From Isurus oxyrinchus (Eukaryota): DNA of 64,000 bases. The stretch is taken from assembly GCA_026770705.1 (NCBI GenBank), contig JANJGN010000034.1:3906001-3970000 (forward strand). Direction: 5' to 3'. The notes under the pieces were generated by a model, which did no database searches, was not told the DNA's origin, and saw only the letters and a program-made list of their open reading frames with translations. This document shows positions 13,174-35,770 of the stretch, piece by piece. The position numbers and the translations under genes were made by a program. Position 1 is the stretch's first letter. Every line of letters starts with the position of its first letter.

Positions 13174-13200
13174 CTGCTGAATTTTCGAGTGACGTTCCTC
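13174..13200 (-). CDS. 27-nt micro-exon, (G)GTSLENSA, linker class
   Basis: ttgcttgtttctaacag|GAGGAACGTCACTCGAAAATTCAGCAG|gtaagc. Confidence 0.7.
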
Positions 13201-14105
13201 CTGTTAGAAACAAGCAAAAATGTCACGCTCGGAAACGTAGTTTTGATATTTTTAGTTTAATTTAGTTTAGATTTTTCCCCCCAAATAATAACTTTAATCT
13301 GAATTCTGAAAACGTGTGCCTAAAGGAATATAATGCAAGCAAATCTGAATGATTCAGATCGCGGTTGCATCTAGAGTAACATGAGCCAAGTCACATTCAT
13401 CCAGCAGATCCGTGCTCTCTTTCCAGTGAGGCTTCATTTAAAATGTTAATATTTACCTCACATTTCTCTGCTTGTCCGTTGAACTCCATGCTGCAATTTT
13501 CTTGGGGAAGTGGGAAACTTTCAAATTTCAAAAGGCATAACAATTCTATGGGAAAGGTTTGGCTCTTGCGCTTCATCCAAAAGAAAAGGATTTCCTTGCC
13601 GTTACAAACGATGACATAGCACCTTTAGAATAGCGTAAAAAATGGGCACTGATTATTTGAAATTGTTTAATTTGGAATAAACAAATAACAACAGCTTCTA
13701 CAAAGAAGAGGCAGATGACTTATATTACGCTAAAGCTAAATTAATTGGAGGGGATGCAACAGTTAGTTCGAGGATACCAGAGATCGCTATGTGGGACTAA
13801 AAAAGTAGAGGCACAGCGGTGGATCAGTTTCGTAAAATAATGACTGACAGACTCTTAGCCCTGTTAAATTTGACTTCAAGCAATTTTGCAAAATGGACCC
13901 CCACCTTATCTCACTATCATACTGGCCATATTTATTGATTTCAATGGTCGGGAATGTACAGAATAAAAAGTGCATGGCAACAAATTAAACAACATTATTT
14001 ATAATATGAGCCCAAAGTTAATATTGAACTCAGTCACACATGATTTACAGAAAGTGAGTTACCTGTTGACTTATCCGACCGGGTATATTATTTGATTAGA
14101 CTCAC

Positions 14106-14132
14106 CAGTCAGTTTACACATTGCTTCCAAAT
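14106..14132 (-). CDS. 27-nt micro-exon, (D)LEAMCKLT
   Basis: tatatattccatag|ATTTGGAAGCAATGTGTAAACTGACTG|gtgagt; about 120-nt intron from the previous exon, as in the 20.7-kb unit. Confidence 0.8.
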
Positions 14133-14253
14133 CTATGGAATATATATCAAATGCAATATTAAAGTGAGAATTATTGGAATAAAATGAGCATATATATGAC
14201 ATTATGTAAAGACGCAAAATAGGCTATTAATGTAAAAGATTTAAGTTATCTAC

Positions 14254-14280
14254 CTTTCTTGCACTGAGTAAGATTATCAT
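14254..14280 (-). CDS. 27-nt micro-exon, (D)DNLTQCKK
   Basis: ttcttttgtttag|ATGATAATCTTACTCAGTGCAAGAAAG|gtagat. Confidence 0.8.
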
Positions 14281-14980
14281 CTAAACAAAAGAACATTTTG
14301 CAAGAGATGACGGTATTTTTAAATTAGGATGTTATATGATTAAGAATCCACTGTCTGGAATGGAGCAGTAATCGGATAAATTTGACAGGATGGCATTTGC
14401 TTTATAAGTGAAAATATTTTCTTTCAGGTATCAGACTTAAGATAATGGATTTGGGCTGATTTTAAAGTTTTTGTAAATAGCCACCACAACTATCAGGTCC
14501 TCATTTTATGGCCGCACTGCATTTTTAAGTGAGACAAATAGAATATAGCTGGAGAGAATGTGTATATGTACGTGGCCAAAAATGGATAACAGCTTGCTGT
14601 CATTTATTTAATTATATTAAAATCATTATAATTCAACATCAAACTGGACTGCTGCAGATGGAAGATGTAATTACCATCGCTGGAAATGAATACCGAGCTT
14701 CACATTTTATTAGGAAACACTGTGATATGTATTAAACATATCCTCTTCGAAGTGATATTTAAAATCAAGGAACATATAAAACAATAGAAAACTGACATTT
14801 CAAAACAGAAAAAAGCTGATTAATTAACCACGTTATTAAGCATTTCATCTTTGTTGAAATAACCCGAATTGAACACTGAATATTTAAAAATCTCCCTGTT
14901 TTAACAGATTGGAAAGTTGTAGATCATAAAGAAAAAAGTGAACCAAGTGGTCGATTGAATAACTACAAATGTTGTCTCAC

Positions 14981-15016
14981 CCTTTTCTTTCAGTGCTTTT
15001 TTCACAGTTTCCAGTT
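14981..15016 (-). CDS. 36-nt micro-exon, (E)LETVKKALKEK
   Basis: ttgcacatttcag|AACTGGAAACTGTGAAAAAAGCACTGAAAGAAAAGG|gtgaga. Confidence 0.8.
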
Positions 15017-15239
15017 CTGAAATGTGCAAAATCAACGTTTAATTTAGTTCTTAAAAACATTTGATTTTGAAACTAGGCTATTTCCTCTTTGCCCATAGAT
15101 AAACATGATACTGCTCACGAAGTAGGGAGAATCGATTAGCAATTATATTAGTGCAAACTAGCCATGCGTGATTATGACTTACAGATGAATGGCACTCCGA
15201 AAATGCACGTCGATAATAAATATGAGATGAACTAGGACT

Positions 15240-16340
15240 AAGAAGTTTGACCCTGCTCAAAGTTCAAGAAAATCATAGCGGATCTTCTCTATGATCTTGA
15301 TGCCTTGTTCCCAAAACCTGTTGTATACAAAAATGTATCGAACTTTGTCGCATTGTGCTCAATAACTGAACATCCAAATCACCTTTTGGGCATTAGAATT
15401 CCAAACATTGGCTGCCGTTTGACTGAATCTATTTAGTTCCTCTTAGACCAAATTGGTCTCATTGTTCTTTTTTTTCATCTATGTCCTTCTCCCTGTTCAA
15501 GATTCCCCCGCCAGGGGAAAAAAAAGATAAATGCTATTCTGTACATGATCACACACATTAAATGTGTTCTACTTTTAATCGGGGCATCAATTATTGTTCT
15601 GAACTCCGAGGATCCAATGATAATTCATTCAATCTTTCATGGTCGAGCGAACGCCCAATCAACAAAACAAAAAGTGCGAGAAAACGTTGTTGGAGTTCTT
15701 TTGGGGCATATCTGTCCATCCTAGGTAAGATGAAAAATCAGAGTGCACATTACTCCAGGTGAGCTCCCATAGATCTCCAATATGATTGCAATGGCATGGC
15801 TGATTAAATTTTCTACTCACATTTATTATTAACAATAGTTAACATGCAATTTTTAGTTCTAAGTTTCTTTCTGCAGCCGCAAAGCAACATTCCACGACAT
15901 GTCTGCAATGATACCGAGGTTGCCTGGAACGAAAATTACAAAACGCCAATCGTTCAGCAAGCCATTGTTTGTTTATTTTTCCTGATCGAATTAAAACGCA
16001 CATTTTCAAAACCTCTCAAATTGTATGCCATCTGTTTTATGTTTTCTCCCTCACCCAAACGGTCTACACATCTCTGCATGTGCGTTTCATCTTCCTCACG
16101 CTGTAATTTCCCATCTAAACTACCATCAACTAATGTGGGTCAGTTTCATTCAGTCCCCTTATCCAAATCATTAAAACGGACTGTACATAAATGTGGAGTA
16201 ATTACCGATCATTGCAATGCACGACTAATCATATCTCTGTGAAGCCAAATACTTACCTTTCTTCTTAATTTTTATGTTGCGGCATTAACCATTCTTGAGT
16301 ACATACAAAGGCATAATCCCCAGCCCCTTGTACTACTATT
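15240..16340 (-). mobile_element. CR1 LINE fragment
   Basis: Reverse complement of CR1 RT/3' sequence (ccaaatcatt.., atctctgc). Confidence 0.55.
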
Positions 16341-16749
16341 TTGTGTAATAATGCTCTTTTCTGATGCTGTTTTTTTTTCCTGTGAGCTCACATACACATA
16401 GGTAATGTGTTCCTCTTTATAAACCTGACTTTGTTTACCTACACACACTCGTTTAAATGGGATTTGCGTTTCATTGATACATTTTGACTGTATTTAACGA
16501 AGTTGCCATTGTGCATATTTTCTCCTGAAACGTACCAAATGATGAAAGGTGGCATTTTGCTGAGTACATTTTTTTTTGTTATTGCTTCCACAACTGATCA
16601 GCTACACCAATGTGGTTCTGCAGCAAATACAGCAGCGATTGTTTGATGACAGTGACCCTTGAAAGCTAACTAATGTCTTACTTTACATATAAGTGGTGGT
16701 CACCAAATTTTAATATTTCAGTGAAACCTGGATATTGCTGTAATGACAT

Positions 16750-17100
16750 AGAAGAACACCAAAGAACTTTGGTGCGCGGTCCTCATCCGATTTCCCTTCT
16801 TCCATGGTAGAATTGCTGAACAAGAACTAATCATTTCATTGAATACTGACCCTCAAGCAATAAGGTAGAACTCTACAAATTCAACCTCAATGCCTGCACA
16901 CAGTGTCTGGGTGCCCTATAAGCATCTCCCGGACAGGAATTCTTCACTCAACTCTCAAAGAATCAGCACTCTCGGAGAGCCAAAACCAAAAACTGAAAAC
17001 ACCCCAAGTGCATTCAGAAGCTCTTCTTGAAGCACGGCAGCACGTAATTTAACGACTGAAAATCTTGCTGTCAATCATTCAGCATATTGGTAACACCACC
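16750..17100 (+). mobile_element. RTE-type LINE C-terminal fragment
   Basis: Eroded PKQ..ELS..R..G.PK...K..LK-like pattern. Confidence 0.35.
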
Positions 17101-17149
17101 ATCAAGCAACATCATGTTAGGAGTTCCAGGCCTTTTATACATTCGGAGA

Positions 17150-18735
17150 AGGAATAGCAAAAAAAAAGCAGTGAAATATGTTATTCAGAGAATTGATAAA
17201 GCGGAGTCAATGGGCGTCGAAAACAAGAGTATTCAAAAGCCTTTTGATAAACGCCCCCATAGGAGATTAGTTGGCACAATTAAAAAAAAGATGAGGTAGG
17301 AGATAATATGTTGGCTTGGATAAAGGTTTGGTTAACTGGCCTAAAACAGAGAGTGTGATTCTCACATGGGAAGACTGTGACTAGTGGCGTAGCACTGATA
17401 ACAGTTCTTGGGCCTCAGCGGAAGGCATTATATAATACTGATTTGGATATTGGGACAAAACGTAAGTTTTCCAAATTCATGCATGGCACAAAGCTAGGTG
17501 AGAATGCATGTTTTGAGGAAGATGGAAAGCAGTTTCAAGAGGATTTGCACAGAGTTAATGAATGAATATGAACAAGGAAAATTTGATATAATGTGGGAAA
17601 ATTAGGTTTTCAACTTTTGCAGGAGGAACAGATGCACATGATATATCTTAAATAGTAAGCGGCTAAAAGATGTACCGGTACAAAAGGACTAGGATACCCT
17701 CATCAACAAGTTAATGAAGTTGACATTCAGTTGCAGCACATTGTTATGAAGGCTAATGGTATGTTGCCCTTTATCAAAAGAGTGTTTGAGTACACGAGTA
17801 GAGAAATCCTGTTTCAAATCTTTAGGTAATTGGTTGAACAGCACCTCGAGTAATGTGTGCTGATTTAGTCCCTTTACCTTAGGAGGATTATTTCTGCTAT
17901 CGAAGGAAATCTAAGAATGTTCACCAGACTTGTTCCCCAGATGGCAGAACAGGCTTTACCAATAGAGATTGGCCCTGTGTTCTCTGGTTTCGACGGATGA
18001 GAGGTGATCTCATTGACTCTACAGAATACTTAAAGGAATAGAAGGATTGGTGCAGGTAAGATGGGTGCTGAGTCAAGAACCAGAAGACACAACTGAAATA
18101 TGATGGGCGGACATGATTTTTTTTTGTTAGTGAGAGGTTTGTCAATCTTTGGAATTCACTACCACAGAGGGCTTAGGAAGCTGATTCATTGAGCATGTTT
18201 AAAGTATGTTACTAAGTGGCAGTGACATTAAGGGATACGGGGATAACATGGGGAAAAGAATCGTAGAAGTGGAAGAACAGCCATGATCATATTGATTGGT
18301 GCAACAAGCTCGATGGATTGAATGGTCAAACCCTGCTCTAATTTTCTTATTTCCTATATTTCTGTTGAGCATGATAGCCTGTGGGGCTTCCAGCCTCATG
18401 TGCCCACCATCTGAGTTTTAAAATCAGCCTAATCGGTCGCATGAAAACGCACAGCAAAAACCTACGACCCTGATTGGCGATGTAGGACAGATTTGACAAG
18501 AATCATCTTCACTAAGAGGCTGGTGAACCGATTGAATTCTCTCACAAATGGGGCTGTGGAGTCTATGTCAATGAACACATTTAACAAGGGAATATATAGA
18601 TTAATATTTTCTAAAAGTTTTAGTTGTGCCTGGGGCGTGAGCAGGAGTATGGCTTTGATATAAAGGATCAGCCTTGATCATGTTGAAGGGCTACCAAGCT
18701 TGACGTTCCAAATGACTTATTCCTGCTTATATCTT
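17150..18735 (+). mobile_element. CR1 LINE RT/3' fragments (two adjacent 3' ends)
   Basis: QKPFDKRPHRRL, TSGVALITVLGP, SKFMHGTKLG, RRMRGDLI motifs. Confidence 0.85.
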
Positions 18736-19181
18736 CTATATTTCTACATCCACGAAGGCAGTTGACATTCTCGAAGGCAATTGGGGGCGGGCAATAAATG
18801 TTTGCCAAGCCAACGGCACCCAGAATCCGTATGTTAATAGAAAAAATCTATTGATGACTGATGTGGCGGTTAACTTCCCAAATAGTTTTTTGTGCGTCTC
18901 CTTTTGAAGTATTGTGTGAGCACGCGCACGAGAAGCATAATTGGGCATGCATGCTGTTGTTGCTGCCATATATTATCAGTTAATTGCACATATGGATATA
19001 TGCGTTTAAGTTACTGCTTTTTTTATGTGCTCCAACTGTGGACGAAAATGAAAGAGCACAAATATCACACCGCAAAAATACAGATCATTTAATATAGATC
19101 CATCATTACTTTATGCATACACCTTCCAAAAGATTTTGATGAAGGATGCCCTTAAAATGTAATCGTCTTTAATTGTTTTAC

Positions 19182-19208
19182 CTTTTTGGGCCTCAAGGAC
19201 TCTTACAT
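19182..19208 (-). CDS. 27-nt micro-exon, (D)VRVLEAQK
   Basis: tattatcattgcag|ATGTAAGAGTCCTTGAGGCCCAAAAAG|gtaaaac. Confidence 0.7.
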
Positions 19209-20659
19209 CTGCAATGATAATACCAGAGCAATCATTAGCAAGAAACATTAAAAGTGTTCTGCTGAATGCTGTTTGCCCAACAGTCCCTACAGAGCGGTCA
19301 TAGTCAGAAGGGTCTACTAGGAATCCCATGATCCTACTTTGGAAACCTGTAAATTACATACGTTTAAGAGAATGCGTTCCTTACCCTGATTAGATGTCTT
19401 AGCCCCTAATTCTGCCACGTCACGATGCAATACATTGGATGGTAAAACCATTATTACACTGTTCCTTGCCCTTATCCCTAATTCTGCAACTTAAGCCTGG
19501 ATTAACTATTAGGTTTACATTTAAAAAGTCAGAGGTGGTTTTCAAATCATAATTATTCTCGAAATCCTTTGCTTCATTGGAAAGCAAAACACAGCAGTTT
19601 CAATTAAGGGCAACCATTTGGATCCATAAAGTGTTACCCGTTCCTATAGGGTAATAGGGGCATATTGTTTACCAACCCTGTGTTCGGGACGAATGCACAA
19701 GGACAATGTTAACGTAGCCTGATTTATGGGAGTAAAATAAATATTATTATTTCCTCTGTTTGACTTCTCGTTTTCCGTTGCTGGCTTGCTCACTGATGGC
19801 TCTGCATGGCTTCAATTTTTCCTCAAATTGTAAAATTTATGCTATGAAGCGCCATGCAAAAATACAATAGCGCATGTGATACTTGAAGCATCCTGCTCCA
19901 AGCTCATGTTACTTTACAATCAATTGTCCGGAATTTTTTTTTTTCAAATTTCATTCAGCAGTGGAACTCATTCATAGGTTTTTGGTCGGTGTTAAAGTTG
20001 CAATACAACGCGCAATTTGTATGCTTCTTTTCCCATTTTCTTTTTGTTTGTTTTTTGTCACTCCTTCCTCATTTCGTGCAAATTATCTACCTTTCCGAAG
20101 TCTCTAGTCATGTTTTTCTTGTACTACATTTCTCTGATGCTTCAGATCAGCCTGTTTAATATGCTGCTTCTTTGTGAAATCCTCTTTCTGTTACTGCACT
20201 GAATTGCAGGTGACCATTATGGCATGTGTCTTATTCCTCATACTACCTGAAATATATGGCAACACTTCATCTATCGTGATGCATTTGCTTACAGTCCATA
20301 AACAGACATTCAGCTTGTTTTTACATTGGAATGCGGGCAGGGAGAAATTTGAAAGTGCTTGCAAGTTTCGTATTCATTTTCAGCGTGTTGTTTACAGGGC
20401 TGATATATATTTGGGTCAGTGCATTTCATAGGTTTACTTAATGCTACTGCCAAATAAAGTCAAGGCGACATCTGGGTGAAGTTATGCGTGAGCTGTGTGT
20501 TTATTTAAAAGAGAATAACGATAGCGAAAATGGATTAGCTGGGGAAATGGGCTTCTACGCATATGATCTGGCCGACGGTGCACTCGAGTGCCACACGCGC
20601 ATGCGGAGAGGCAAATTGGTCATTGCCTGGAAAAAAAAATCAAACTGTATTTTACTCAC

Positions 20660-20686
20660 CATTCGGTTTACACCTCTCTAGCAGTT
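20660..20686 (-). CDS. 27-nt micro-exon, (E)LLERCKPN
   Basis: tatatatttcag|AACTGCTAGAGAGGTGTAAACCGAATG|gtgagt. Confidence 0.8.
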
Positions 20687-20804
20687 CTGAAATATATACA
20701 CAGTGAAAAGGTAAAATAGGTCAACGTGATCACTGTAGATTATTAATTCAACCATGAAATGTGTTTTTTTTAAATGCAAGGTGTAACGTCTTATGGCAAG
20801 TTAC

Positions 20805-20831
20805 CTTTCTGGCAACGACTCAGCTTTTGTT
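20805..20831 (-). CDS. 27-nt micro-exon, (E)QKLSRCQK
   Basis: tgttttattttag|AACAAAAGCTGAGTCGTTGCCAGAAAG|gtaact. Confidence 0.8.
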
Positions 20832-21370
20832 CTAAAATAAAACATTAACACAAAGTAAAACAGAGAGAATCATATTTCATTGCACTTTCAGCCTGTTTTA
20901 ACAATTAATTCGCTTATGCCTGACCCGTAATTTCACCTGCACAGCCTAAGGTGAATCAGTCACCTTCTAACATAATCCCCAAACAAAATTATGAGTTTCC
21001 AAGTTCCATTAATCTAGTCTGAACAGCAGTTATGAGTTAAACTTCCAAATTTAAATCAAGTGAGAAAATAAAAGCTAACAGGATGACAAGTTGGCTTGTT
21101 TTGGAGCCATAATGAAGAAAGTTATGACTCAATGGCTGCCCTGTGAAAAATAATTTCGATTGATTTTGTCTTATTAGTAAGAGATTTGAATGCCTATAGG
21201 CAACAGGTCCTGGACCTGTATTTATACGAAATTAACCCCAAATTTGCTTTGTAATACAATTGAAAATAAAAGCTGGCAGCATTAATTGCTGCAACCATTT
21301 GACAATCTATCAATTTTAACAGGTGCCCATCACCAATCGGAGAATGGTCATCCCTTCTGTCTTCCCTCAC

Positions 21371-21406
21371 CTGTATCTTCAAGATTTTTTCGCAAAGTAT
21401 TCAGCT
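21371..21406 (-). CDS. 36-nt micro-exon, (E)LNTLRKNLEDT
   Basis: ctttggttttcag|AGCTGAATACTTTGCGAAAAAATCTTGAAGATACAG|gtgagg. Confidence 0.8.
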
Positions 21407-21789
21407 CTGAAAACCAAAGTTCGAAAACGGCTGCTGAATTGCATGAGTTGCACGTGATTTGTTTAAAAGACCAAAGTATTTCAACCCCTTGTGTTTCGAT
21501 CGCTACTAAATGATGCACGTCATGATTTTATGAGCGCAATGTGTATGCATGTACGGGTGTCTTTCTCCCTCTATGTTTGGGTCTTTGTGTCTGTGAGTGC
21601 ATATACATGTGGCGAGAGTGTGAGTCAGTCAATGACGAAATATCATTTCTCTATGAAGCTTTAGACGTTCAGATTCTGATTTTCAAATCAGTATTCCATT
21701 GCTGCGTGTACTTAAAAATCATCCCTGGAGAGATAACCAGCAGACAGAAATTAATACAGAAATTATGTAATTAAAAATATTGGCAGAAG

Positions 21790-22330
21790 GGATACGGCGA
21801 GGCAATACACGTTCAATTTCGCAGTTCTAAGCAGTTATCAGAGACAGGGAGGCCTGAGTATCCGCATGCATAGGTCTTTGATCGTGGCAGAAAAAAAAAA
21901 AATCATAGGAGATCATTGCACAATGCAGGTGGGATCCTGAATGTCATGAATGGATCTATTATGTACGAAAACAGAATATTTAAGATAAATGCTTATGAAA
22001 TCATAGTTAGGCCACGGCCAGATTATTGTACCCACTTATTCTCATGCCATTTTAGGAAGGATGAAAGGCGGTATAGAGCAGATTTCGGAGACTGGTTTAA
22101 AGAATGATAGATGTTTTAGTGAGAAGATTACATTGGACAAAGTGGAGCATCTGTCTTATTCGGGCAGAAAAGTAGATGGCAGATACGTTCGAATAGCACA
22201 AGATTATGACAGGTTTAGGCAAATTACTGAAGGTAAACTTGGTCCCATTAGCTGATCGTGAGAGAACTATGGGACAAATATATAAAGGATTTTGCAAGAA
22301 TCGCAATTCTCAGGTGGCAATCAATATTTT
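21790..22330 (+). mobile_element. CR1 LINE fragment
   Basis: IVRPRPDYCTHL..HFRKD (LVRPHLEYC-like). Confidence 0.65.
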
Positions 22331-22589
22331 TGCACAATAAATGTTAATATTCCTAAGAATCACAGCTCAGAATTTTCATCAGAGTATAAGTGACCAACGA
22401 GGCCTGATGTAAATTGGGCTTACGCAAGAATAACATTTTCATTCACGGCTACCGTGATGAGGTGATGGATTAGAAATAAATTGATTCAGTCAAATATTCT
22501 TCATTTTAGAATCAAAGGATTTTTATGGAGCTGAGGTAGGCCGTCTGGGACATCGTGTCTACACGGGTTCTTCAATGAGCATTATGATT

Positions 22590-23470
22590 CATTGCAATTC
22601 TTCACCCTTTTCTTCGCACCCATGCAAATTGTTTCTGTTTAATTAATCATCAAATGCGCTCTTGAAACTTTCAATGAACTTCCCTCCTCCACACTTGCAG
22701 AAAAGGCATTTCAGCCCCAAACCACGCCTTATGTGAAATAACTTATTTTCCTCACATTGCATTTCCTTCGTTTGCAAATCACTTTATCTTGGTTACCTCT
22801 CCTCCTCGAGCGGGAACAGCTTCTCCCTGTTTACTCTATCCAGTCATCTCATGATTTTGAACAAAACTAACAAATGTCTTCTTAAACTTCTCCTCTCCAA
22901 TGGAGAACCATCCCACAAACTCCAACATATCTTCATAAATGAATTGTCTCATCCCTGTAAACATTTTTGTAAACGTCCTTTCCACTCTCTCCAATGCGGT
23001 TACATCATTTGTACAATCTGGCGCCTAGAACTGTACACAATACTCAACTGAGATCTAACTGGTATCTTATGTAGATTCAGCATAACTTCCTTCCTTTTGT
23101 ACATAAATGCTCCTATGAACAAAGCCCAAATATTGGATGCCTTATTTACTGCACTCTCCACCTGCCCTGCCACCGTCCATCATCCAAACACATACGCTTT
23201 CAGCTCTTTTTCTTCTAGCACTCCCAGATGAATTGTGCACCTTATATTATATCAGCTCTTCGTGTTCTTCCGATCAATATACATCACCTCACAATTCACT
23301 GCATCGAATTTCATCTGCCAGCTATCAGCCCACTCCACCAATTTGCCAGTTCCGTTTGAAGTTCAATAATGTCCTCCTTACAGTCCATGATGCTTCCAAG
23401 TTTTGTATCATCTGGAGGCTTTGAAATTTTCCTCGGCACACCAAGCTCGATATTATTAATATATGCCTCC
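22590..23470 (-). mobile_element. CR1 LINE RT/3' fragment
   Basis: YINNIELGVPRKISKPPDDTKLG on minus strand. Confidence 0.8.
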
Positions 23471-24053
23471 ACCGCAATGAGTCCTTCATTCATTTTAAAA
23501 TCCCATGTGAAGTTATAATTGCAACACATACAAATAAACCATTGTGGCATACGTACCAACATCTTTTTCAAGTAGTGCTTTAGCTAGGTACCATAGCAAA
23601 AATATGTATGGTTACACAAATGAAAAATAAGTAAACGCATTTACACGTCTCTGGTCTTTGAGGTTTCTATGTTTAGTAATACAAAACGAAAAATTAAATG
23701 GATGCAAACTGGTAGAGATGAAACGGAAAGGAAAGTTTTTTTATGGGGCAATGCTAAACAATATTGAGATAGCATCATATTTCAGTTTTATTTTCTATGG
23801 AGTTTTTCTATTCTGTTTAGAGATGCTGGACTGAAAACTAACAAGGTACTTTGCTGTCTTAAGGGAACAAACGTCAAATTTCTCTAAGTAGTGACTATAC
23901 AGTCAATGTTCAGGTCGCTTATTGGCTTTTGTTCTCATATTAGCTCTCCGAAAAGGCGCTTGGACTATGAATAAGTGAAGGAAGAAGAAGACGAATGTTA
24001 TTGTAGCACACATAGATGAAGGTGATATTACAGGTTTGCAAATAACTACTAAC

Positions 24054-24083
<30 letters not shown>
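24054..24083 (+). repeat. (AAT)n microsatellite
   Basis: About 10 AAT units. Confidence 0.95.
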
Positions 24084-24084
<1 letters not shown>

Positions 24085-26487
24085 CAATTGACGATAAACT
24101 TATGAATGCAGCCTTTGAGTTTACTGCTTAGTAATTAAGTAACAATTGTGTGAAAAGTTAATTCCGAGCCTGTTAGCATATGGTGATTAAATGTTAGAAC
24201 TTTATTACATATTCATGAAAACAGAGGAAGCTTAAAGGAAATTTGAAGCTCTAGTTATATCAAAGAATGGGCTTTTCCCATGGGTTGAAGTGTCGTTTTC
24301 CAAATGGCATAATTCATTTATACACAGAAAAGTAGTGATGTCAAAAATAAATGAAATAAGCTGAAATGACATAAATAAACAGAATAATAATAAAGGAGCA
24401 AAGAGGGTTAAGGATTTAAATTTCAGTTACTAGTATTGTAAGGAGAATTGAATAGATACATGAAACAGACACATGTTTACCGTGATATGAGTAGAAGAGG
24501 AAGACCGAGAGTAATTGGATGCATTTCCTATCGTCACGCACCTTATGGAATTCTTCACAGTGGCCGAAGAAATGGTTTATTTTTGGTGTCAGCTGTGGCT
24601 CAGTGAATTGTGTCTCATTTTTATATCACAACGCTTCGGATTAAAGTTCTACTCAAGGACGTGGAGGCAAAAATCAAGGCAAATATCGCATTGTGGTATT
24701 GATTGAGAAATGAACTGTTTCACATAGCTTCATTCAGACGAGATTTTACAAGGAGCGTTCAGCAAATGGCTGGTGGAATTATTTCTATGAGTGAAATAAG
24801 AGTATGCCTCATGTCCTGGTAAACGTTTGTTTCTCAGTGAACATCATAGAAAACATGATGTTATTTAGTTCTCATATCTTTGTATCTGGGAGTTTCTTGA
24901 ACTCATATTGGCTGTTGCATTTCTGAATTAACAGCAGTGATTAACCATTAAAATACACACCAATGCGTTTTAGGAAAGACAGCAAACCAGCACATCTTCA
25001 GAGCCAATTAGGGATCGGCAGCAAATGCTCTCCTTGCTAATGACAACAGTCTGGAGTACCAATTGAGATTTCCAGGAATCTTTGCAGGGAACAACACCTC
25101 TTGAAATACCTCATGAATAAGATCGTCATAATTTGAACATATTCCTCCTTTGCTTTGGTCTTAAGAATCAGTGAAATATTTTCATCTACTTTGAAAATAC
25201 ATTGGAGTTTCAGCCTTGATAAGTGCAATGAAACACTGGAGTGTGACATGAAATAGTACATTGCAATTTTAAAATTAGATTAGCCCCAATAGAGCCACTT
25301 TTGCCGGTGATTACAGAATTATAAGAGTTATCAATGCATCCGGTCTTCCAAACCAAACACCTTTGGCCCAGGTATTGAAATTTTGGCTCGACCACACACA
25401 CTGCATGCATAGGCAATTATCTAAACTGGAAGGCACAATTGGCATTGTGAATGTTGGTGGGCAGGGCATGAAACTAATTGTGTTGAATAAGATGGGTACC
25501 AATTAGAAAATTAATTGGAGGTAATTTTAACTGTACCGGAACAAACAAAACTTTCACATTAACTAGATACTTTTATTTGCATATAATAAGCTCGCTTACT
25601 TGAAGTTCAGATAGTGTTCCATCTTCTGAGTAGGGCCGCGTGATATATTTGAGGCTTCAAAATCCATCTCACTCTTATCAAAAATTATTTATGAGATCAC
25701 AATAAATAATTAAGATTGAAATGTTGCTCACAGTTCACACTAAGCATCAGAGGAACTAACAACCGTCAGCCGAGTTTCGAGTCCACCAGTCACTAAAAGG
25801 GATAATTCAGTGCTTTCACATCGTTTATGTCTCTGGGACAACTTAAATCCTTTTTGGGAAACCCGTCTACTCCTACATTGCGCAGATATTTTGTTGTTGA
25901 ATCCCTCATTCTTCTTCTCCTTAGCTGTAGACTTGGCTATTGAGTGCTATCCTTTGCATTTTCCCTCCAATCCACCCCGGTGGCCCAGAATGTTGCATTT
26001 TAACACTTAACTCGAAGCAAGTCCCGCTTTTCCGTCATGCATGAAGACATGGAACTGTTATCCTGTCCGGCAAATGTTGTTCTGAACGTTATCACCTTTA
26101 TTTTCAATGTATTTCTGGAAAATTTACTCTTCTATGTACAGAATATCCTCCACATTCATATCAACAAGGACACCTTCGCTCCTCCACCTCTAAGCCATCC
26201 CATTTGCAACCATGTCAGCATTGGAATTTGAACCTCCAGCTGCTTATGCACTAAGCTTTCTACATAAGTCCTGTATCCTCGTTCTCGTTCTATCTATATT
26301 TTCAAATGGGGTTGTTCCTTAAAAAAAAAACATTTACTATGCCAAGCTTTTGTTCTCCTGCCCCATCACCTGGATATCTAAGATGATTGTATTGATGATA
26401 TATTATTCCTGTTCATATTGTAAGTTGGCTCAATGGATTGAAATAATGCGCCAGTTGAGACAAACGCTCTTGTCTTTTCATTCTTAC

Positions 26488-26514
26488 CTGAAGACGTAAG
26501 AAGTTTGTCAAGTT
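26488..26514 (-). CDS. 27-nt micro-exon, (E)LDKLLTSS
   Basis: ttcatcttttaag|AACTTGACAAACTTCTTACGTCTTCAG|gtaaga. Confidence 0.65.
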
Positions 26515-27709
26515 CTTAAAAGATGAATACAGTGAGTTCAAATGCATTTGGAATAGAACTGATGAAGAATCACATGTTCACACTGAAGATAGTAAACTGG
26601 ATTGTTGTTAAGCCCGTATTCATGCAAATCTGTTAAGCGTCATAACACATAACAATTACAGTGCTGAAAAAAATATTGGCGTTTATCTTCCCATACATAC
26701 CCTTACATGTTTCATTTATCGGCCGTTCATTATGCCCGCTATGCATTTTTTCATGATTCTTCCATCTAACGTCCCCTTAAATTTGTTTGTCCTGTTCATC
26801 TAACTGTTGGAATAGGAATTCATTGCATAACCAAAGGTGGAGCAATATATTTGATTTGACTTTGAAATCGCACATTTTAAAATTTATCTTAAATCTTGAT
26901 CCCTAGTTGTGAAGCGTGCCATAGGTGAAAAAAATATATAAAGCTGCTTTTTCGCACAATTAATTTACCTCACTGTTGTCCATTGGGAAAGGTAACGAAC
27001 ATTTATTTTAGAGAAGGGATGATCAGTTAAATCGTGAAAACTCTCTCATAGTTCTTTCAAAAAGCATTTTAGCGATCAACACACAGACAACTGAAATTCA
27101 TGAAATTGCTGAAGTTGAAGTAAAACATCGAATATTTGAACAGACATCATTATCAAAATGCGTTGTTTTGTTTACTGCCATTAGCCAGTGTTCTGTTCGT
27201 CATACTCTTGTGTTTGAATGGCAAGATGAAAGAACGAATTACCAACCTGAACATAAGGAAAGCGCAGAGAAGTATGGAGTCAGGACAGAACTGTTGTAGA
27301 TGCCGCCTTACAGTGAGGCATTAAAAAGTGGTCCCATCAAGCTACTCATCGAACTGTAACAGATCTGGTGACACTGAACCGTAACTTTTGAAGCCCCCAG
27401 CGTCGAACTTGGTGGACACACCAAAAATAGGGTGGGGACCCCGTCTTGGAACTTCAAAGTTAAAGGATGGCTGGGCAATTTAACAGATGTTCTAACTTTC
27501 TCTGAGCAACTGGTCAGCTCTGGGAGTCATCCGAAGAATACATTTAGATTGCCAGCATTTGATGTTTCCATATGAGTTAACAATGTGTTTATCAGAAAAA
27601 AAAGTTTGACAAATTGCAGCCTCTTCGAACTTCTAGATAACATTTGCAAAAACGCAGACAACTACACTCATTCCAAGTGTCGCAGCTAACATTCGAGCCC
27701 TGCTGATAG

Positions 27710-28140
27710 AGTCATAGCATTATACAGCACCAAAAGAGGCAGCTCGGCCCGTCGTGGCAATGGCAGCTATCAAGCACGTATGTATTCTAGCACTTATTAG
27801 TTGTCCTGTATGCTGTGGCGTTTCAACTACTCAGCTAAACATTTCTTAACTGCTGTGTGCGTCCCTCCCTCCACCAAGGCGTCAGAAGGTGTGTTCCAGA
27901 TTTCAACCACCCTCTCACTGAAGTTTGTTTTCCCACAAAGCACCCTCCAAACCTGCTTTCCCCAACATTAAATATATGCTACGTTGTTAGTGATACCACC
28001 GCTAAGTGGCAGGGTTTCTTCTTATCTGCCATACCTATGCTCCCCTTTATCTTGTATACTTCTGGCAGGATAGATCTGAGCCTTCTTTGCACTGATGAAA
28101 ACAAGCCTAGTCTATTCAGTCTCCCTTCAAAGCTGAAAAC
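27710..28140 (-). mobile_element. CR1 LINE 3' end
   Basis: tcatag..tacagcac..aagaggc..tcggccc terminus and ttccagatttcaaccaccctc. Confidence 0.7.
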
Positions 28141-29456
28141 AGATCATCACCAATACCTAATCCCCATTACGCTCGACCCCCATCACTGATGTCCGACATC
28201 CTCCACCATATGATCTCCATTCCTGAAACCACCCCCGCCCCAAACACCCCGATATCAGTTGCGCCACGTCTCTCATGTCACAAGCACACAACTGTATCTG
28301 AACCCTCCCCCCCAATTTGCGCCCCTTCACACCAGTACCACAACATAAATATCACTCCGCGTACACTCAATGGCCACTACCGCCACCCCCTCCCCACCTG
28401 GCAGTTGATTATCCTACCATCTACACCGAAAAGATTGCAAACCCTGTTCACTTACCTTAGGCATCTACCTTCTCCCAGACCCCTTAATTTCAAGGGGCCT
28501 TTGAATTTACACCATGTGTTCTGCTGGAAAGCGAAGCTGGGTTTCGCAGAGAGTTGCATTGCTTACATCCCTAACGGCCGAAGTCGGAATGTCGAGCAAG
28601 ACGGGCACGCATGATGTCTCCCTTAAGTAAGTGGGCATGGAATGTCAACCCAATACTGCTAAAAGCTCCGAGAAAATTATGGCTTACTATTTCAAAGAAG
28701 GCCGGGGAGTTATGAAAATTAGCATTCTGCAGATTTATCCCTCAATCAACAGCATGAAAATGTGTCTTCATCACAATTCCGTTTGTGGGAATTCTGTATG
28801 CACAGTGGTTGCTGCATTTAAAAATAAATAATTTGCTGCAATGCAGTTCATCAAGTGGTCATGAAAAAGGTATCCAATTGTATGCCTTTGTTTTGTAAAA
28901 CGCGTTCAACCTGCAACCATCTTAAGAGATGGAAGCAAGAGATTCAGTAAACAGTGAGTAACATTGCGATCTCGATATTTGTGGATGGGTGGGTTAAAAC
29001 CATGGGTGCTAAAGTGTTCCTGATAAGCCTGGGACGAAACGGAAACACTCCTTGCACCACATAACGTATTTTAAAACAGTTGTTTATATTGTAGAACTGA
29101 CAGGTTCTGGCACCATGTCACATGGAGATATCATTTGTTTTAGGTAATCCAAGCCGTAGTTGTAACTTTTATGTTTGGCTCGCCATGGAATTGTGCGAGG
29201 CCGAGTTACATTTGGTTTGAAATGTCTCGGCACTTTTCTTCTGCTTTCTCATTTCCTTTTGTTTAAAGAGGGGCGGCAGTGGGTGAGGCATGTGTGTTTT
29301 GGCATCGACCTTCACAAGTACTCCAAAACCTTCAAAACCAGTGAAGGAGACAGCAGAGCAATGAACATATAACTTAAGCTATCTGCAACAACATCCGCAC
29401 AGGATCGCCAAAGTAACACGGCAATCCCAGCATAAATTGTTGCACTTTATTTTTAC

Positions 29457-29483
29457 CAGCATTCGTGTTGAGTTGTCTGTTTC
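29457..29483 (-). CDS. 27-nt micro-exon, (G/R)NRQLNTNA, linker class
   Basis: ttttgcctttaactgtacag|GAAACAGACAACTCAACACGAATGCTG|gtaaaa. Confidence 0.6.
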
Positions 29484-29831
29484 CTGTACAGTTAAAGGCA
29501 AAAAAATGGTGTTATCACAAAGGCACGGCTCGAATTGTATCCCCTGTGAACTTGGACTGTATCTGTAACTCATTCTGGAATGGTGGGAAAATATTCATTA
29601 TTTTGTTTTAAGCATTATTGAAACCTATTATTTACATCTATGGAGTTGCTAAATGTCCTCGTCAATCAAGAATTAAAGATACACTGTATCTTTAAAATGC
29701 CTTCATGAGGTCCCAAAGCTGTTTTATTTAGGACAATGAAGACAATTTGCATCTTGGTAACAGTCTCAATGCAGAATTGGGACAACGTTAATTGTTGCTT
29801 GGAAAATTATGGGTGAATCAATGAAATAAAT

Positions 29832-29985
29832 AAAAAAACAAAAGCAGTTCGGTCAAAGGGTCATGAGGACTCGAAACGTCAACTCTTTTCATCTCCGCCG
29901 TTGCTGCCAGATCTGCTGAGTTTTTCCAGGTAATTCTGTTTTTGTTTTGGATTTCCAGCATCCGCAGTTTACTTGTTTTTATCTA
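29832..29985 (+). mobile_element. Short Penelope 3' tail with 12-bp TSD
   Basis: Matches pLTR end of the 55.3-kb element; TSD aatgaaataaat at 29820-29831 and 29986-29997. Confidence 0.85.
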
Positions 29986-30804
29986 AATGAAATAAATGTT
30001 TGTTTTCATTGAGAACTACACCATACATTTCTTGCCACATTGCCCTGGCCTTTGTTTATTTCGGCGGAGGTCTGAGTCATACCCACGATGTCTGATGTAC
30101 AGGAACAACCATGAAGCAGTCATCGGAAAGTTGCAGTGACTGATTACTAATTTAATTCCATGTTCTGTCCGGGTGTATTCAAAAGGTTCAGATAAATTGA
30201 AGATTCGCTGTGTTAACATATGCGTACTGCTCCCAATTTTGTGCTATGGAAGAAAGTGCCGGTCCGCAAAAAGTTTGTATCTGTTTTTGCAAAAATAGAA
30301 TAGGAACGCTCATGGTTTGCAGACGCGCTAAATGACAATGTTTAAAGCAAATTCAGCGGTCCCGGCCATCGTCTAATCACAAACTTATCTTTTCACAAAC
30401 AGTGTCATGCCCAGAAAATCAGACACATTTGCATGCATTTGCTCACTCGTTTGCTCCTTCACTGAGGCCTTACTCGCCACCTCATGCACAACGGCACTCA
30501 GTAACTAACTCCTACACCCATTCACTCACATTGTCACTCATTCACTCAAGCACACCCTTTTCATTATTTCGTTCAGTCACAAACAAATAAATATTTCGTC
30601 CTCCCCTCCCTCCTTCCTTCCTTGTCCTCTACTTTCCCACGTTAATTAATTAATTCATTCATTTATTTGTTCATTCATTAATAATTCCAGTATCATCCAT
30701 TCACACATGAAGTCAATAAGGCTTGCAGAAATTTGAATTCTGTTAGGTTGGGGAGATAAATATATCTTCACCGTGCTTTGAGAAGATTGTTTGGCAATGC
30801 TCAC

Positions 30805-30825
30805 TGATGCTTTCCAAGCTGCTTT
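30805..30825 (-). CDS. 21-nt micro-exon, (E)SSLESI
   Basis: ttcttagggtcag|AAAGCAGCTTGGAAAGCATCA|gtgag; acceptor and GCTTGGAAA core shared with 42890-42910. Confidence 0.45.
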
Positions 30826-31219
30826 CTGACCCTAAGAACATATTCATAATGCATTTGAAATGCACTGAATGAAGTAATTGGATTTAGAGGCTTCAATACA
30901 TAACTTTTTTATCTGTATCTATTAAAGTGTTACTAACTGTTTCACAAGACTCTCCTGTGGAGATTTAACGATTACAGGACAAAATCAATCAACATTGGAT
31001 TTGCAAAGTGTTTAGGGGAGAGACAGATTTTCCGAATCATAACTTATGTACGAATATTGCCCTTCATTTGCGCCAGAGAGTGAATATTGATTTAAGTATG
31101 TTATGCTCCCGTCCTGAAGGTGCTTTATGAGACAACCTCTCAAAACGGTCTGCAGTTTTCCTTTATTTACTTAAAGGAAGATGCAAATACCTCCGTAGTG
31201 GTTCAGTGGACGTTTACTA

Positions 31220-31670
31220 GATTGATATCTGAAAAGAGCGGGTGGTCTAATGAGGAAAAGCTGGAGACAGTGGTCGTGTTCTCCCCAGATGAGTGAGGCT
31301 GAGTTGATTGTAGTGGACGGTCTTGAAAAGGTGGTTTTGGATAGGTTGTTTCCAGTTTTGCATAAGTACAGAATCATGAGGCACCCTTTAAATATGAAGG
31401 CTCGCCCCTTTAGTCTGGACTTAATTTTTCCACAGAACGGCATATGCCTTTGGAGTTCTCTGCCTCTGAAGGCGATCGACATAGTACCATTGATTGTTTT
31501 TCTAAAGGCGGAGTTTGTAGATCCTTGCTGGCGAGGGAATGAAAGTTTACGTTAGTAGATGGGAATGTGGAATTCAGTGCACATTCGGATCTGTCATGAA
31601 CTTATTGAATAGTGCAGGAGGCTCGAGAATCCGAATGACTTTTGTCTGCTTATATTTCGTGTGTTCGTTT
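31220..31670 (+). mobile_element. CR1 LINE 3' fragment
   Basis: GLEKVVLDRLFPV..RIMRHPLNMK; LWSSLP. Confidence 0.75.
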
Positions 31671-32605
31671 GTATTGTCATAACCTAGGAGATTCCCCAAC
31701 ACTCAGCAAGAAATTATGTGATGAACCATGTTTATTGTTCAAACAATTAGGCATCTGAAACCTCACCGATGAGATAATGGTCCCACTAAACATATCGTAA
31801 TCAAGACTGCAACCTGGAGACTATTCCAGTAGGAAACAACATTTCAGTGCAACTTTTGCCTCCGTGTGCTTTCCAATGGCTATTGTGGAATAAATTGACT
31901 GGAGACAATAATTTCATGGTTCGGTGTCTTTACCATTCACCCAAACAAATAAAACATGGAAGAAATTCCAAAGAAGTTCATGATGGAGTCTGGAGTGGAG
32001 CAGTGATTTCATATGACTGTTGTGCATTCGACTGACGTATTCAAACAAACCCAGTTCCCCCCACAATGTGATCTTGTCTGGCACTGAGTTTCTCGATTGC
32101 CACTCAACTCGGTGTGCTTCCAATCAGTCTGATATGGTTTGATAAAGTAAATGGGAAAAAACTTTGGGAATCAAATTTCAACAGATGCATGTGGGGCCAG
32201 GGATGACAAGGGTGGTTGGGAACTAATGAGGCATATACATTTTGAGCATAATAATGAAGGAATATTTCACTAATAGTTATATTTTGTAAACTTTAAAAGT
32301 CCAAAGAGATGTGTCCATCCAATAAATTGCTCAGAAAATTCCAAGAATCTGGATAAAAAATAAACACAATGCTAACATAATGCATGCATTCATCGGAATT
32401 AAATAAAACAGAATTCAAGTTATGATGCAAAAAAAAAAAATCCTGCTCAGATCCCACATAGAATACTGTCAGCAGTGAAGTGCACTGCAAAACATATGAA
32501 TCACATATTGACTGTGGAAGGAATATTGCACAATTGCCCTTGAAGACAAAGGGTGCAATTTTGAGCAGTTATTAGCACACTATGTTTTAAAGTCCATGCA
32601 GTGAT

Positions 32606-33691
32606 TTAACTTCTGACGGCCTTATTAAACAAGACTGATCAATCACTCAGGCAAAATGAAGGAAGAAGAGTCATATGCATTAGAATCATTAATTATATTC
32701 CTTTCCCACAGATGGTACTAGGCATTCTCAGTGTTTCCAGGATTTTCTTTGTAACAACTAATTAACGTCATTTTTTCAAATGGCCATGGGAACATAGGGT
32801 TGGTTGATGGAGGTAATAAACATCAGATGGGACGTCAAGGGGCAAGGAGGATAGAGTCGATGTATGAAAGGTACAAGCCTTTCAAAGCTGATGATTGAAA
32901 ATACGTCGTCATACAAATGGCACAGGAAATGTTGGAATTTCTTGCACAGAAGAATTTGGTGCTTTATGGGTCAAGGGATATGGTGCAAAGCGTGCTATAT
33001 GGAGAAAGGTCACACATCAACATTTATTCATTCAAATGGTTAAAGGGGTCTAGAACTTATATCGCCAATTGATGCCCCTGTATTCGTTTGTTCTTCAGGC
33101 CAAATGAAAGCGACTAAGATTACTTGTCTCATAATCCGCCCGAGAAGATTCTTCTTTTCCTCGCTCACTATTGTGGATTTCCCAAGACAGAACATGCCGG
33201 TATCTACCTGAATTAGTGCCAGTTGGTCGTATTCCTGAAAGAAAATAAACAAATAATAATATTACCGAGGGTAAAGTGTGATGGAATATTTGTTTAAGTT
33301 CCCTAAAACATTGAAGGTTACTTGGTGACCTGAAGGAGGTGTATAAGACAATTAAGACAAATGATCATAAAGCTCAAGGAAAAGTATCTTAGGGTGAAGT
33401 AGGGAACAAAAAAAACAAAGCGTTAGCCTGATATTGGCGATTACCAATTAAGTGATGCAGTCAGGATTCATCTTTTTCGCACCAATGGAAATGTTAAAGA
33501 TTCTCTATCAATTACTAGTTACAAAGTGGAGTTTGATAGGTACAATAACAATGTCCCGGAAACACTGAGAAGTTCTAGTAGCATCTGTGGACAGAGAAAT
33601 GGAGTTAACAATTCCAATTCATATGATCCTTCTTCCTGCACTTTACCTCAGCGAAGGATCAGTCTTGTTTAATAAGGCCATCAGAAGTTAA
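32606..33691. repeat. Inverted repeat pair (about 135-bp arms 32606-32741 and 33556-33691)
   Basis: ttaacttctgacggccttattaaacaagactgatc vs gatcagtcttgtttaataaggccatcagaagttaa. Confidence 0.8.
33208..33234 (-). CDS. 27-nt micro-exon, (G)IRPTGTNS, linker class
   Basis: tttattttctttcag|GAATACGACCAACTGGCACTAATTCAG|gtagat. Confidence 0.65.
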
Positions 33692-33781
33692 CGAACCAAT
33701 TGCATATACCGATCATCTGATAGAATAAATTTTTGGCATTAGGCTGGAGAGTCTGAGAACCTACTCTGTTCACTTTTATAC

Positions 33782-33808
33782 CTATCCTGCACCTACGTAG
33801 TTCTGCAG
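33782..33808 (-). CDS. 27-nt micro-exon, (A)AELRRCRI, xxxLxxCxx class
   Basis: cactctctgcag|CTGCAGAACTACGTAGGTGCAGGATAG|gtataa; Leu/Cys in same positions as 20805-20831 and 14254-14280. Confidence 0.65.
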   Translation of the reverse strand: MQNYVGAG

Positions 33809-33957
33809 CTGCAGAGAGTGCAAAATATCTTCGAAATACTAAGGTTATATTTGGAAACAAATCAAATATCATCAAAATTATTTTGCTGACTCCCATCAAA
33901 AATAGGGTACCATGTTTGCTGTTCAGTACAGAACATTAGATCCATAAGTAAACATAC

Positions 33958-33972
33958 CATTGTGATTATAAG
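33958..33972 (-). CDS. Possible 15-nt micro-exon, (x)YNHN
   Basis: gttttttcccag|CTTATAATCACAATG|gtatgt; strong sites, symmetric phase. Confidence 0.35.
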
Positions 33973-34799
33973 CTGGGAAAAAACGTAAATATTAACTACA
34001 GTCATTTCATAGAAATCACTGAAGCTTATATTGCGCATAACCAAGTATTCCAAACAGACACAACACAGAGATAAAACTTTGGGTGGTGGAACAGTTGCAT
34101 TATTCACCTGAATCAGAACTAAATACATTCACGTTCAAACAGAATGGCAATTAAGTCTACCTAGACACACGACTGTACTTCGTTAGCTGCAGTCTACCGT
34201 CCTTCGGATAAAATTTAGGCCGGGTTCTGGGATGGCCTCTCAGGTTGGATAAAAAAGATTCCTTTCTCTATCTTGCTGTGAAATACCTAATTAACTCTGA
34301 GTCTACTCGCCAACATTTCTCCCAACAAAGTTATTGACTTCTGCTTGAAAATATGTAATATTCTCGGATGCTATTCTAGAAGGTCATAAGAAAGACAAAA
34401 AATGGATCAGTGATGAGACTGGATGGAATCGCATGAAATATAGTCTGATTATTTACAGCTTGCCCAATGCAGTCGATTAATCCCAAAATGTCCTCGGATT
34501 TAGTTCAGTTTCCTCCACTTCTGGCTAACTTCATCGTCAGTGTGCAAAGCTGCTGGATAGTGAGAAAGAAAGATTGCTGTACTGAGCAAGCCACACTCTC
34601 ACAAATTCTCAATTTATGGCCCCGTTGTATTATTTTTGTGAAAGGTGCGTGGCTTCATAAGAATCGCTAAACGAAAATAGGGTTTTCAGCTTCGGACAGC
34701 ATATTTGTAATACACTTGAACCAATCTGGAGACACCAGCAGAATAAAATTCATCCGGAGCACGATGTCTATCATGGCCTATGACATTCTGTATTTTATG

Positions 34800-35430
34800 T
34801 TTAGAAGACAAATATGCAACGTGTAAAACATCCTTTAGCCATGAACAGCTCTGGTCAGGTTAGGTTTGAAGCAGTTTGAATAATTCTGGGCATCACAGGA
34901 AAGAGAGGAGAGATTGGCCATGGAGCGAGAGAAGTACGTATTTACAGAACAGAACTTCAACCCCAAGGGTTGGACTGTAAGATGATCTTGTATGAAATGA
35001 GGATCTCTTCTTTCAGTTTCAAAGATTAAGTGGCGATTTTGGATGAGTGTTCCATATACTTCCGAGAACTCCTAGGCTGGATTCCAAGAAACTATTATCG
35101 CTAGTTCAGACAATTAGCATGAATATGACATAGCCAAGGAATTAAAAGAGGAATTCTAAAAAAAAATATTGCTTTATTTAGTAATACCTGGTTTGAAGTT
35201 ATTGATGCGCATTTACAAATATAAATCACTGCTAAATGAATTATTAATTTTATAAGTGCGATTGACAGACATCTTTTAAACAAATATATCAAAAGAAATT
35301 TTTTAAAAAAAGTTTTGCACGCATGAACTAAATTCACAAAACAGGTATGGCCTCATGAAACATCGTAACGAGCTGGAGGGATTAAATATGCTAGAACTGT
35401 TCCAATATGCCCGTTTTCTTATGTTCCCAT
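34800..35430 (+). mobile_element. Highly decayed CR1 3' fragment
   Basis: LVRL.L...E.FWAS pattern and CR1-like tail. Confidence 0.5.
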
Positions 35431-35770
35431 TTCTTTGTCATGATCATCAACGTTATTATGATCGAGCAAATGTTAAGTAACAACAATCCATCGCTCAGTT
35501 TTACACATTTCTCAAATTCCTTGGAACTCTGTGGATCTCTCAGAAAGGCAAAATCTTACTGTGAGGCAGAGCACAATAATTAGCTCAGGTATAACAGCCA
35601 AAATTTCGCTTTCAAGTAGCACATAATCATATACTGTATTTAGTGTTAATGAGACGTTGTGGCTTAGATCTTGCAACGGGGACGGGTTTTCACCAAACAC
35701 TACCTCTCTGAGAAGGAAGTGTAGCTTTTCCCAGGTAATAAATTGTGTCACCTTCTCAAGAAAATCCTAC

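Follow-up and report, generated by a model that had tools for sequence, protein, structure and literature searches.

The 64,000-nucleotide (nt) window analysed here (Isurus oxyrinchus, contig JANJGN010000034.1, C34 in the coordinates below, positions 3906001-3970000) holds, between 14106 and 21406, two cassettes of very short exon-like segments. These six segments belong to an array in which at least 113 segments of 27 and 36 nt, all preserving the frame, are followed by a B30.2 exon. More than 100 such mini-exons and the B30.2 exon likely splice, to judge from the genomic sequence, into one very long helical rod protein. On balance, the favoured reading of the array is a single coiled-coil rod of about 1,450 residues that is probably cytosolic and possibly anchored in a membrane at its N terminus.

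The cassettes themselves are as the initial annotation had described them, each with segments of 36, 27 and 27 nt and with second introns of 118 nt (cassette 1) and 121 nt (cassette 2); the first introns measure 539 and 700 nt. All six segments lie on the minus strand, are framed as AG/...G/GT in phase 1-1 and are free of stops. With the first residue of each peptide set by the upstream exon, cassette 1 encodes ELNTLRKNLEDT, EQKLSRCQK and ELLERCKPN, and cassette 2 encodes ELETVKKALKEK, DDNLTQCKK and DLEAMCKLT. The likeness of exons without likeness of introns that had been claimed is likewise present: the exons agree at 58/90 nt and 11/30 residues, and over whole codons at 52/81 nt, where 2000 shuffles average 23.1 and reach at most 35, whereas the introns and 400-nt flanks align at shuffle level (z 0.3, -0.6, 0.6, -0.4). 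Duplicated, frame-preserving coiled-coil exons look real. Pairs of 27-nt exon candidates spaced 70-200 nt apart are absent from null stretches (560 kb of the plus strand, 259 kb of the minus strand); three occur on the sense strand, two of them being the window cassettes. Gaps between accepted exons are mostly far longer than the second introns of the cassettes (median 2,410 nt, 1/112 below 300 nt). The cassette is an old module, since a third copy with both cysteines and a 115-nt second intron sits in the neighbouring paralog (-489780, -490662, -490804). Membership in a known transposable element, which would have undone the initial proposal, is not what was found: the cassette DNA has one place in the 5-Gb genome by a DNA search that skips very common words, and a pattern for the Cys-bearing 27-nt exon has four, all in this gene cluster, in genes A and B. 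A 39-residue repeat as the unit does not survive, however. The succession 36+27+27+27 is seen once (21406 to 15017), three 27-nt candidates follow cassette 2 before the next 36-nt exon to give 57 residues, and the main unit is 21 residues.

The array was traced by scans of 864 kb of continuous sequence. By splice score alone, the minus strand of the 470 kb from +70 kb to -400 kb yields 52 phase-1 candidates of 27 nt and 36 of 36 nt, where the plus strand has 0 and 1; other exon lengths are rare on both strands, except for 21-nt candidates (11 minus vs 4 plus). A residue profile combined with the splice score accepts, under leave-one-out, 57/182 candidates of 27 nt and 41/113 of 36 nt, and 0/214 on the null strand, while a lower threshold, not leave-one-out, gives 113 exons on the minus strand and none on the opposite one. 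The working list comprises 129 minus-strand exons (81 of 27 nt, 41 of 36 nt, 2 of 21 nt) with 1,286 codons over about 497 kb, and the cassettes lie near its 5' end. Downstream on the same strand come a 21-nt exon (-422047), the last 27-nt exon and then the terminal exon, whose 172 codons with stop form an intact frame followed by polyadenylation signals. This exon is a SPRY/B30.2 domain (Pfam SPRY, E 3.4e-18), nearest among solved structures to TRIM58, BTN3A1 and TRIM21 (E about 1e-20). No transmembrane exon was found between the array and the B30.2 exon. From the cassettes to the B30.2 exon, the continuous sequence scanned also yielded neither another B30.2 nor a large terminal exon.

The coiled-coil register is carried by the exons themselves. 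Positions 2, 5 and 9 of the 36-nt exons are hydrophobic in 98, 95 and 88% (n=41), as is position 4 of the main 27-nt class in 93% (n=57), so that 36+27 nt make 21 residues, or three heptads in register. A block of 25 exons (-288 to -345 kb) read in genomic order has its peak period at 3.495, and 126 exons in genomic order give 3.515 without a stop; in neither case does any of 300 shuffles of the exon order reach the observed power. Within a cassette the core positions are 2, 5, 9, 16, 19 and 23, with the first Cys at 19 (d) and the second at 27 (e). Since the following 36-nt exon takes up the pattern at 41, the coil would contain one 11-residue stutter. Cysteine in the core is not peculiar to the cassettes, position 5 of the 36-nt class being Cys in 17/41 and Leu in 18/41.

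Purifying selection acts on frame and length, on splice sites and on core Leu and Cys, while surface residues change at about the silent-site rate. The purifying selection suggested initially therefore holds for these features and fails for the peptide as a whole, for which the two cassettes differ at proportions of 0.37 of silent (pS) and 0.36 of replacement sites (pN). Nor, in the youngest duplicated region, where 53 long alignments span an exon, is whole exon sequence better conserved than intron: identity is 0.70 in introns, 0.81 in splice flanks and 0.78/0.66/0.69 at the three codon positions, and the ratio of replacement to silent change (dN/dS) comes to 0.83 for 52 pairs that are not independent and to 0.93 (0.42-1.57) for disjoint sets. 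The constraint is visible elsewhere: gap columns there number 16 in exons vs 2767 in introns, core positions have pN 0.09-0.12 vs 0.28-0.41 at other positions, and the places found via intron homology alone hold an intact exon in 24/24 cases, where neutral simulation gives a survival of 0.32 each. As a separate observation, silent sites of the cassettes differ by only 37% although their introns cannot be aligned; this low divergence suggests splicing-enhancer constraint or conversion in micro-exons.

The gene is not alone. Two agreeing searches, each scoring 150 of about 290 candidates, place five related B30.2 exons on the contig, that of this gene at 3.47 Mb and the others at 2.71, 4.82, 6.40 and 7.50 Mb. 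Mini-exon candidates occur in 18/18 sampled 10-kb stretches between 2.9 and 7.3 Mb, only weakly at 5.25 Mb, always on the strand of the next B30.2 exon, and no mini-exons of this type were found in seven flank stretches sampled at 2.5-2.7 and 7.7 Mb. Five giant genes side by side appear to fill 2.7-7.5 Mb (about 4.8 Mb) of the contig; extrapolated from the density of this gene, with about 1.3 of the 4.8 Mb read, the other four would have about 190, 210, 400 and 270 exons. Paralog C (G000:C34:4005500-4817000, plus strand) is head-to-head with this gene, starting about 35 kb past the window end, and has exact 21-nt heptad exons (31 plus vs 1 minus), some with Cys at a core position, as well as 45-48-nt exons with Trp and Pro. 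Paralogs D and E (4827827-4850373, 6433690-6455835) have near-identical B30.2 domains and a common 22-kb 5' flank of about 78% identity, and E starts with 21-nt exons at once, the 111-nt and 36-nt exons with which C and D open being absent; only in C and E are exons of 21 nt common. Two more members with 27/36-nt exons lie on contig C21 (89670000-89723000 and 91310000-91349000), inside a large B30.2 gene cluster with about 100 matches among the candidates scored, and may tie the family to a TRIM/BTN cluster.

Relatives were found in Scyliorhinus, Chiloscyllium, Cetorhinus, Narcine and Callorhinchus. In a B30.2 tree of 45 rows, whose bootstrap is not settled and which has two long branches and partly includes unnamed multi-domain hits, these relatives and the two C21 domains form a clade of 21 rows (100/100) apart from the 24 other rows, and this gene pairs with catshark XP_038668997.1 (100/99). 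The catshark protein is 72% identical over the B30.2 and matches four of the last mini-exons of this gene in the same order. Chimaera XP_042192744.1, a 1697-residue prediction from Callorhinchus in the same clade, contains 12-residue units (14 matches vs a shuffle maximum of 5); its label, 'nuclear-pore anchor-like', is an automatic name only. XP_038672308.1, XP_069797411.1 and XP_069775385.1 share the clade with these two, and most of the five have the 12- and 9-residue units; such chondrichthyan database proteins carry automatic names and are mostly short models. Database isoforms include a difference of exactly 9 residues in all four groups compared, one such difference being the penultimate exon. 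If isoforms of this kind rest on RNA alignments, they support the splicing of 27-nt exons in the relatives. A search for longer homologs with the B30.2 alignment returned one unrelated TRIM/BTN fusion model and was set aside.

As to the side of the membrane on which the rod lies, arguments from charge and from motifs point both ways. A cytosolic layout is favoured because the array ends in B30.2 with no intervening transmembrane exon found, as in cytoplasmic butyrophilin tails, and rod and B30.2 together are probably cytosolic. The candidate for an anchor, the 153-nt exon of Table 1, encodes about 14 hydrophobic residues and then a basic run ending in RARR, 2 kb before the first strong 36-nt exon, and the chimaera protein begins with MD, a 17-residue hydrophobic stretch and RAKRRKKQ (six K/R). 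Under the positive-inside rule, basic residues that follow a hydrophobic segment usually lie on the cytosolic side, so the charge difference in the chimaera points to a cytosolic C terminus and fits the BTN/BG layout. Pfam searches for Ig, RING and B-box domains found none in 123 open frames (at least 75-85 residues) upstream of this gene, in 119/126 listed frames upstream of three paralogs or in six relatives; motif scans for RING and B-box also gave no match, and no convincing DxGxYxC Ig motif was found in the 864 kb, a scope outside which exons farther upstream and short frames lie. Several other candidates were rejected: the 111-nt exon of paralogs C and D resembles the chimaera protein by eye but not significantly (61-490 of 500 shuffles reach it); the conserved 5' flanks of C, D and E with their common donor, if coding, would have frameshifts and stops and were read as non-coding; these flanks do not align convincingly with the hydrophobic candidates of A and B; and a 39-nt 'exon' at window +85816 sits in a long interspersed element (LINE) remnant.

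A number of points weigh against the reading of one cytosolic rod. Splicing in Isurus oxyrinchus is inferred from genomic sequence alone, the splice-site weight tables were general-purpose ones, and 16/129 exons of the working list (the second 27-nt class and some 21-33-nt exons) were added by hand. Heptad order is weak in the cassette region itself, where the period is 3.51-3.55 and 15/300 and 35/300 exon-order shuffles reach the observed power. The candidate anchor is one of 14 hydrophobic candidates on both strands of the 864 kb, the only one then followed by at least four K/R; its likeness to the chimaera N terminus is not significant (184/1000 shuffles reach it), the well-scoring 36-nt exon at +67872 lies upstream of it, and scans for a first exon and for transmembrane segments pointed to no clear first coding exon. 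The database relatives are gene predictions, 5/6 without a hydrophobic stretch. Finally, RxxR follows both hydrophobic segments (RARR here, RAKR in the chimaera), and Cys at d in 17/41 of the 36-nt exons, recurring in the chimaera, fits interchain disulfides.

These last points belong to the rival that survives best, in which rod and B30.2 of the same gene lie outside the cell. The product would be secreted or a type II membrane protein, cut free by furin just past the hydrophobic segment, with its d-position cysteines forming cross-links. RxxR is a furin-type motif that could be cut if the C terminus were outside. Core cysteines extend to paralog C and its 21-nt exons, three cassette copies spread over two paralogs retain the Cys pair, and the hydrophobic candidate of paralog A has its basic residues on the N-terminal side. 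Against this stand the chimaera charges, MD before and RAKRRKKQ after the segment; N-glycosylation sequons, which are not enriched (4 vs 5.2 expected in 1261 residues); and the second cassette Cys, which at e and 8 residues from the first would be a poor fit for an intra-helix disulfide. Moreover, the few heptads followed by a terminal B30.2 in BTN are cytoplasmic, as are the cysteine-containing heptads of BG tails, encoded by 21-nt exons, according to the available parts of PMC5938342 and PMC8813856. An extracellular, disulfide-linked stalk is a tentative and rather doubtful placement. It is improbable that no single long transcript exists and that the locus yields shorter products, through internal promoters, heavy skipping or extra genes without B30.2, such that the cassettes need not join the B30.2 exon. 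Most database models (5/6) are indeed short (230-460 residues), isoforms skip exons, paralog E seems to begin mid-array, and BG genes yield soluble tail-only products, as reported in portions of PMC4046983. On the other side are the failure to find a competing terminal exon after the cassettes, the presence of only five family B30.2 exons on the contig among the candidates scored, the length of the chimaera model and the heptad phase maintained over 126 exons. Decayed or non-coding repeats, whether chance splice-like segments, transposon or pseudogene, would accord with the dN/dS near 0.8-0.9 of the youngest block and with exons hardly more alike than introns, but are very improbable given a strand asymmetry of 88 to 1, 24/24 intact copies, the paucity of exon gaps, the intact B30.2 frame with its polyadenylation signals and single-copy cassette DNA.

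If the array does encode one cytosolic rod, the protein may act as a molecular ruler or tether, with a ligand-binding B30.2 head held far from a membrane or cytoskeletal anchor, much like an extreme butyrophilin/BG tail without an Ig ectodomain. At the coiled-coil rise of 0.15 nm a residue, a parallel dimer would, if its coil is unbroken, measure about 190 nm. The symmetric phase-1 exons allow both growth by block duplication and a length set by splicing: the array may have grown by tandem duplication of exon-plus-intron blocks, which is directly visible at -290 to -345 kb, and skipping of exons could tune rod length. The cassette would place Cys at core d and, with its linker, add one 11-residue stutter to the coil, Cys perhaps serving as a small core residue or as a lipidation or redox site. 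The nearest functional lead is zipper protein, a BG tail that regulates the actin-myosin interaction in the gut brush border (PMC4046983, in part).

A bolder proposal, unlikely as a whole, is a cartilaginous-fish family of giant B30.2-tipped rods that dates back at least to the split of sharks and chimaeras and was built by exon-level tandem duplication, whose largest gene would span 1.5 Mb with about 400 micro-exons and about 4,000 residues, reaching several hundred nm, with length set by symmetric-exon skipping; in its boldest form, the products would be furin-released, disulfide-cross-linked extracellular fibres with a B30.2 head. Titin, with 363 exons, has fewer than the number projected for the largest gene. 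An extracellular B30.2-headed fibre, if true, would be a use not described for B30.2, none having been found in literature searches.

Table 1. Features of the gene, in window positions (window = contig C34 3906001-3970000; negative values lie left of the window start)
Feature	Position	Strand	Basis
36-nt phase-1 mini-exon, cassette 1, core L at 2, 5, 9	21371..21406	-	splice sites, profile
27-nt mini-exon, cassette 1, L at 4, Cys at 7 = d position	20805..20831	-	splice sites, profile, pattern
27-nt mini-exon, cassette 1, L at 2, Cys at 6, follows 118-nt intron	20660..20686	-	second 27-nt class, main profile rejects
27-nt linker mini-exon joining cassettes	19182..19208	-	splice sites, profile
36-nt mini-exon, cassette 2	14981..15016	-	splice sites, profile
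27-nt mini-exon, cassette 2, Cys at 7	14254..14280	-	splice sites, profile, pattern
27-nt mini-exon, cassette 2, Cys at 6, follows 121-nt intron	14106..14132	-	splice sites
27-nt mini-exon, Gly/Ser-rich, likely coil break	13174..13200	-	strong splice sites 10.5/10.8, profile-accepted
27-nt linker mini-exon, AKALLEKDV type; relatives -6719, -33223, -53547	23557..23583	-	profile
27-nt mini-exon, xLDKLL type; relatives -549, -24270, -42574	26488..26514	-	scan
27-nt candidate mini-exon, polar	29457..29483	-	splice score only
27-nt candidate mini-exon, Gly/Pro/Thr-rich	33208..33234	-	splice score only, 12.3/6.0
27-nt mini-exon, 21-nt alternative acceptor possible	42890..42916	-	scan
36-nt mini-exon, first strong coiled-coil exon downstream of hydrophobic candidate	43144..43179	-	splice sites, profile
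Candidate membrane-anchor/signal exon, 153 nt, phase 1-1, in-frame ATG 45305	45203..45355	-	single genome copy, unconfirmed
Uncertain 27-nt candidate	63127..63153	-	scan
Well-scoring 36-nt exon just beyond window	67872-67907	-	scan
In-window gene part	13174..45355	-	array scan
Last 27-nt exon of array	-427581	-	scan
Terminal B30.2 exon	G000:C34:3474116-3474636 (L068)	-	Pfam

The minus strand has further candidate mini-exons (33958-33972, 33782-33808, 51370-51396, 19385-19411) whose splice scores are fair but whose peptides are atypical; they are possible false positives. An intron of the gene holds a degenerate provirus-like remnant at about 2100-9100, with direct repeats at 2176-2327 and 8940-9091 (78%) and, by eye, an env-like frame at 7815-8414. 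Pieces resembling Penelope-like retroelements by eye (40946-42220, 55334-59700) include a 373-nt inverted repeat (94%) and a 461-residue reverse-transcriptase-like frame (56932-58317). An element at 47859-50173 has long terminal inverted repeats (144 + 355 nt, 85%) and a similar counterpart at +88011-89747. Beside or inside the gene cluster lie rhodopsin-type receptor frames, L094:6292-6582 (Pfam 7tm_1, E 8.5e-5) and, by eye, L141:7049-7939.

Placed among known systems, the gene works like a greatly stretched BTN/BG tail and, by the tests run, falls outside BTN, BG and TRIM: no Ig exon of the kind that BTN and BG have was found, its exons are mostly not of 21 nt and it has a B30.2, both unlike BG, and no RING or B-box as in TRIM was found. 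Literature searches, with most subscription papers outside their coverage, found no published study of the family; the supplements of PMC12841164 list chondrichthyan butyrophilins and may bear on novelty. Butyrophilins share the order of heptads and then a terminal B30.2 but have few heptad exons together with IgV/IgC, whereas here there are more than 100 mini-exons and no IgV/IgC exon was found. In BTN the heptads are encoded by short exons of phase 1, the last of them 27 nt long. The B30.2 itself forms its own long-branched clade (100/100), with the sister group not settled and two BTN-like rows only. TRIM proteins with PRY-SPRY likewise place a coiled coil before B30.2 but have RING/B-box, none of which was found in the 5' regions or relatives here, and the catshark ortholog owes its database name, 'TRIM39-like', to its B30.2 alone. 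Enterophilins of guinea pig are cytosolic, with a long leucine zipper and C-terminal B30.2, but far shorter, a likeness drawn here by description only; an enterophilin is linked to SNX1/EGFR in the available part of PMC13749957.

Chicken BG offers a parallel to the tail. According to parts of PMC5938342 and PMC4046983, its coiled-coil tail is spread over a large number of very short phase-1 exons, contains cysteines and varies at its surface residues, and selection on tail variation is reported in portions of PMC5938342 and PMC8813856. The long coil in tiny phase-1 exons is shared, and 21-nt exons are frequent in paralogs C and E; BG differs in its tail, made of 13-38 exons that are each 21 nt long, in having IgV and in lacking B30.2, whereas this gene has 27/36-nt exons and a B30.2 and is 3-10 times longer. 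Because their exons measure 21-36 nt, the five genes that apparently take up about 4.8 Mb go largely unnoticed by gene finders. The genes offer a natural test of the ordered splicing of hundreds of micro-exons and of coiled coils with a conserved core and drifting surface. More broadly, they unite the B30.2 of butyrophilins with the long mini-exon tail of chicken BG, halves otherwise separate, and so bear on the origin of these immune families and on the function of BG-type tails.

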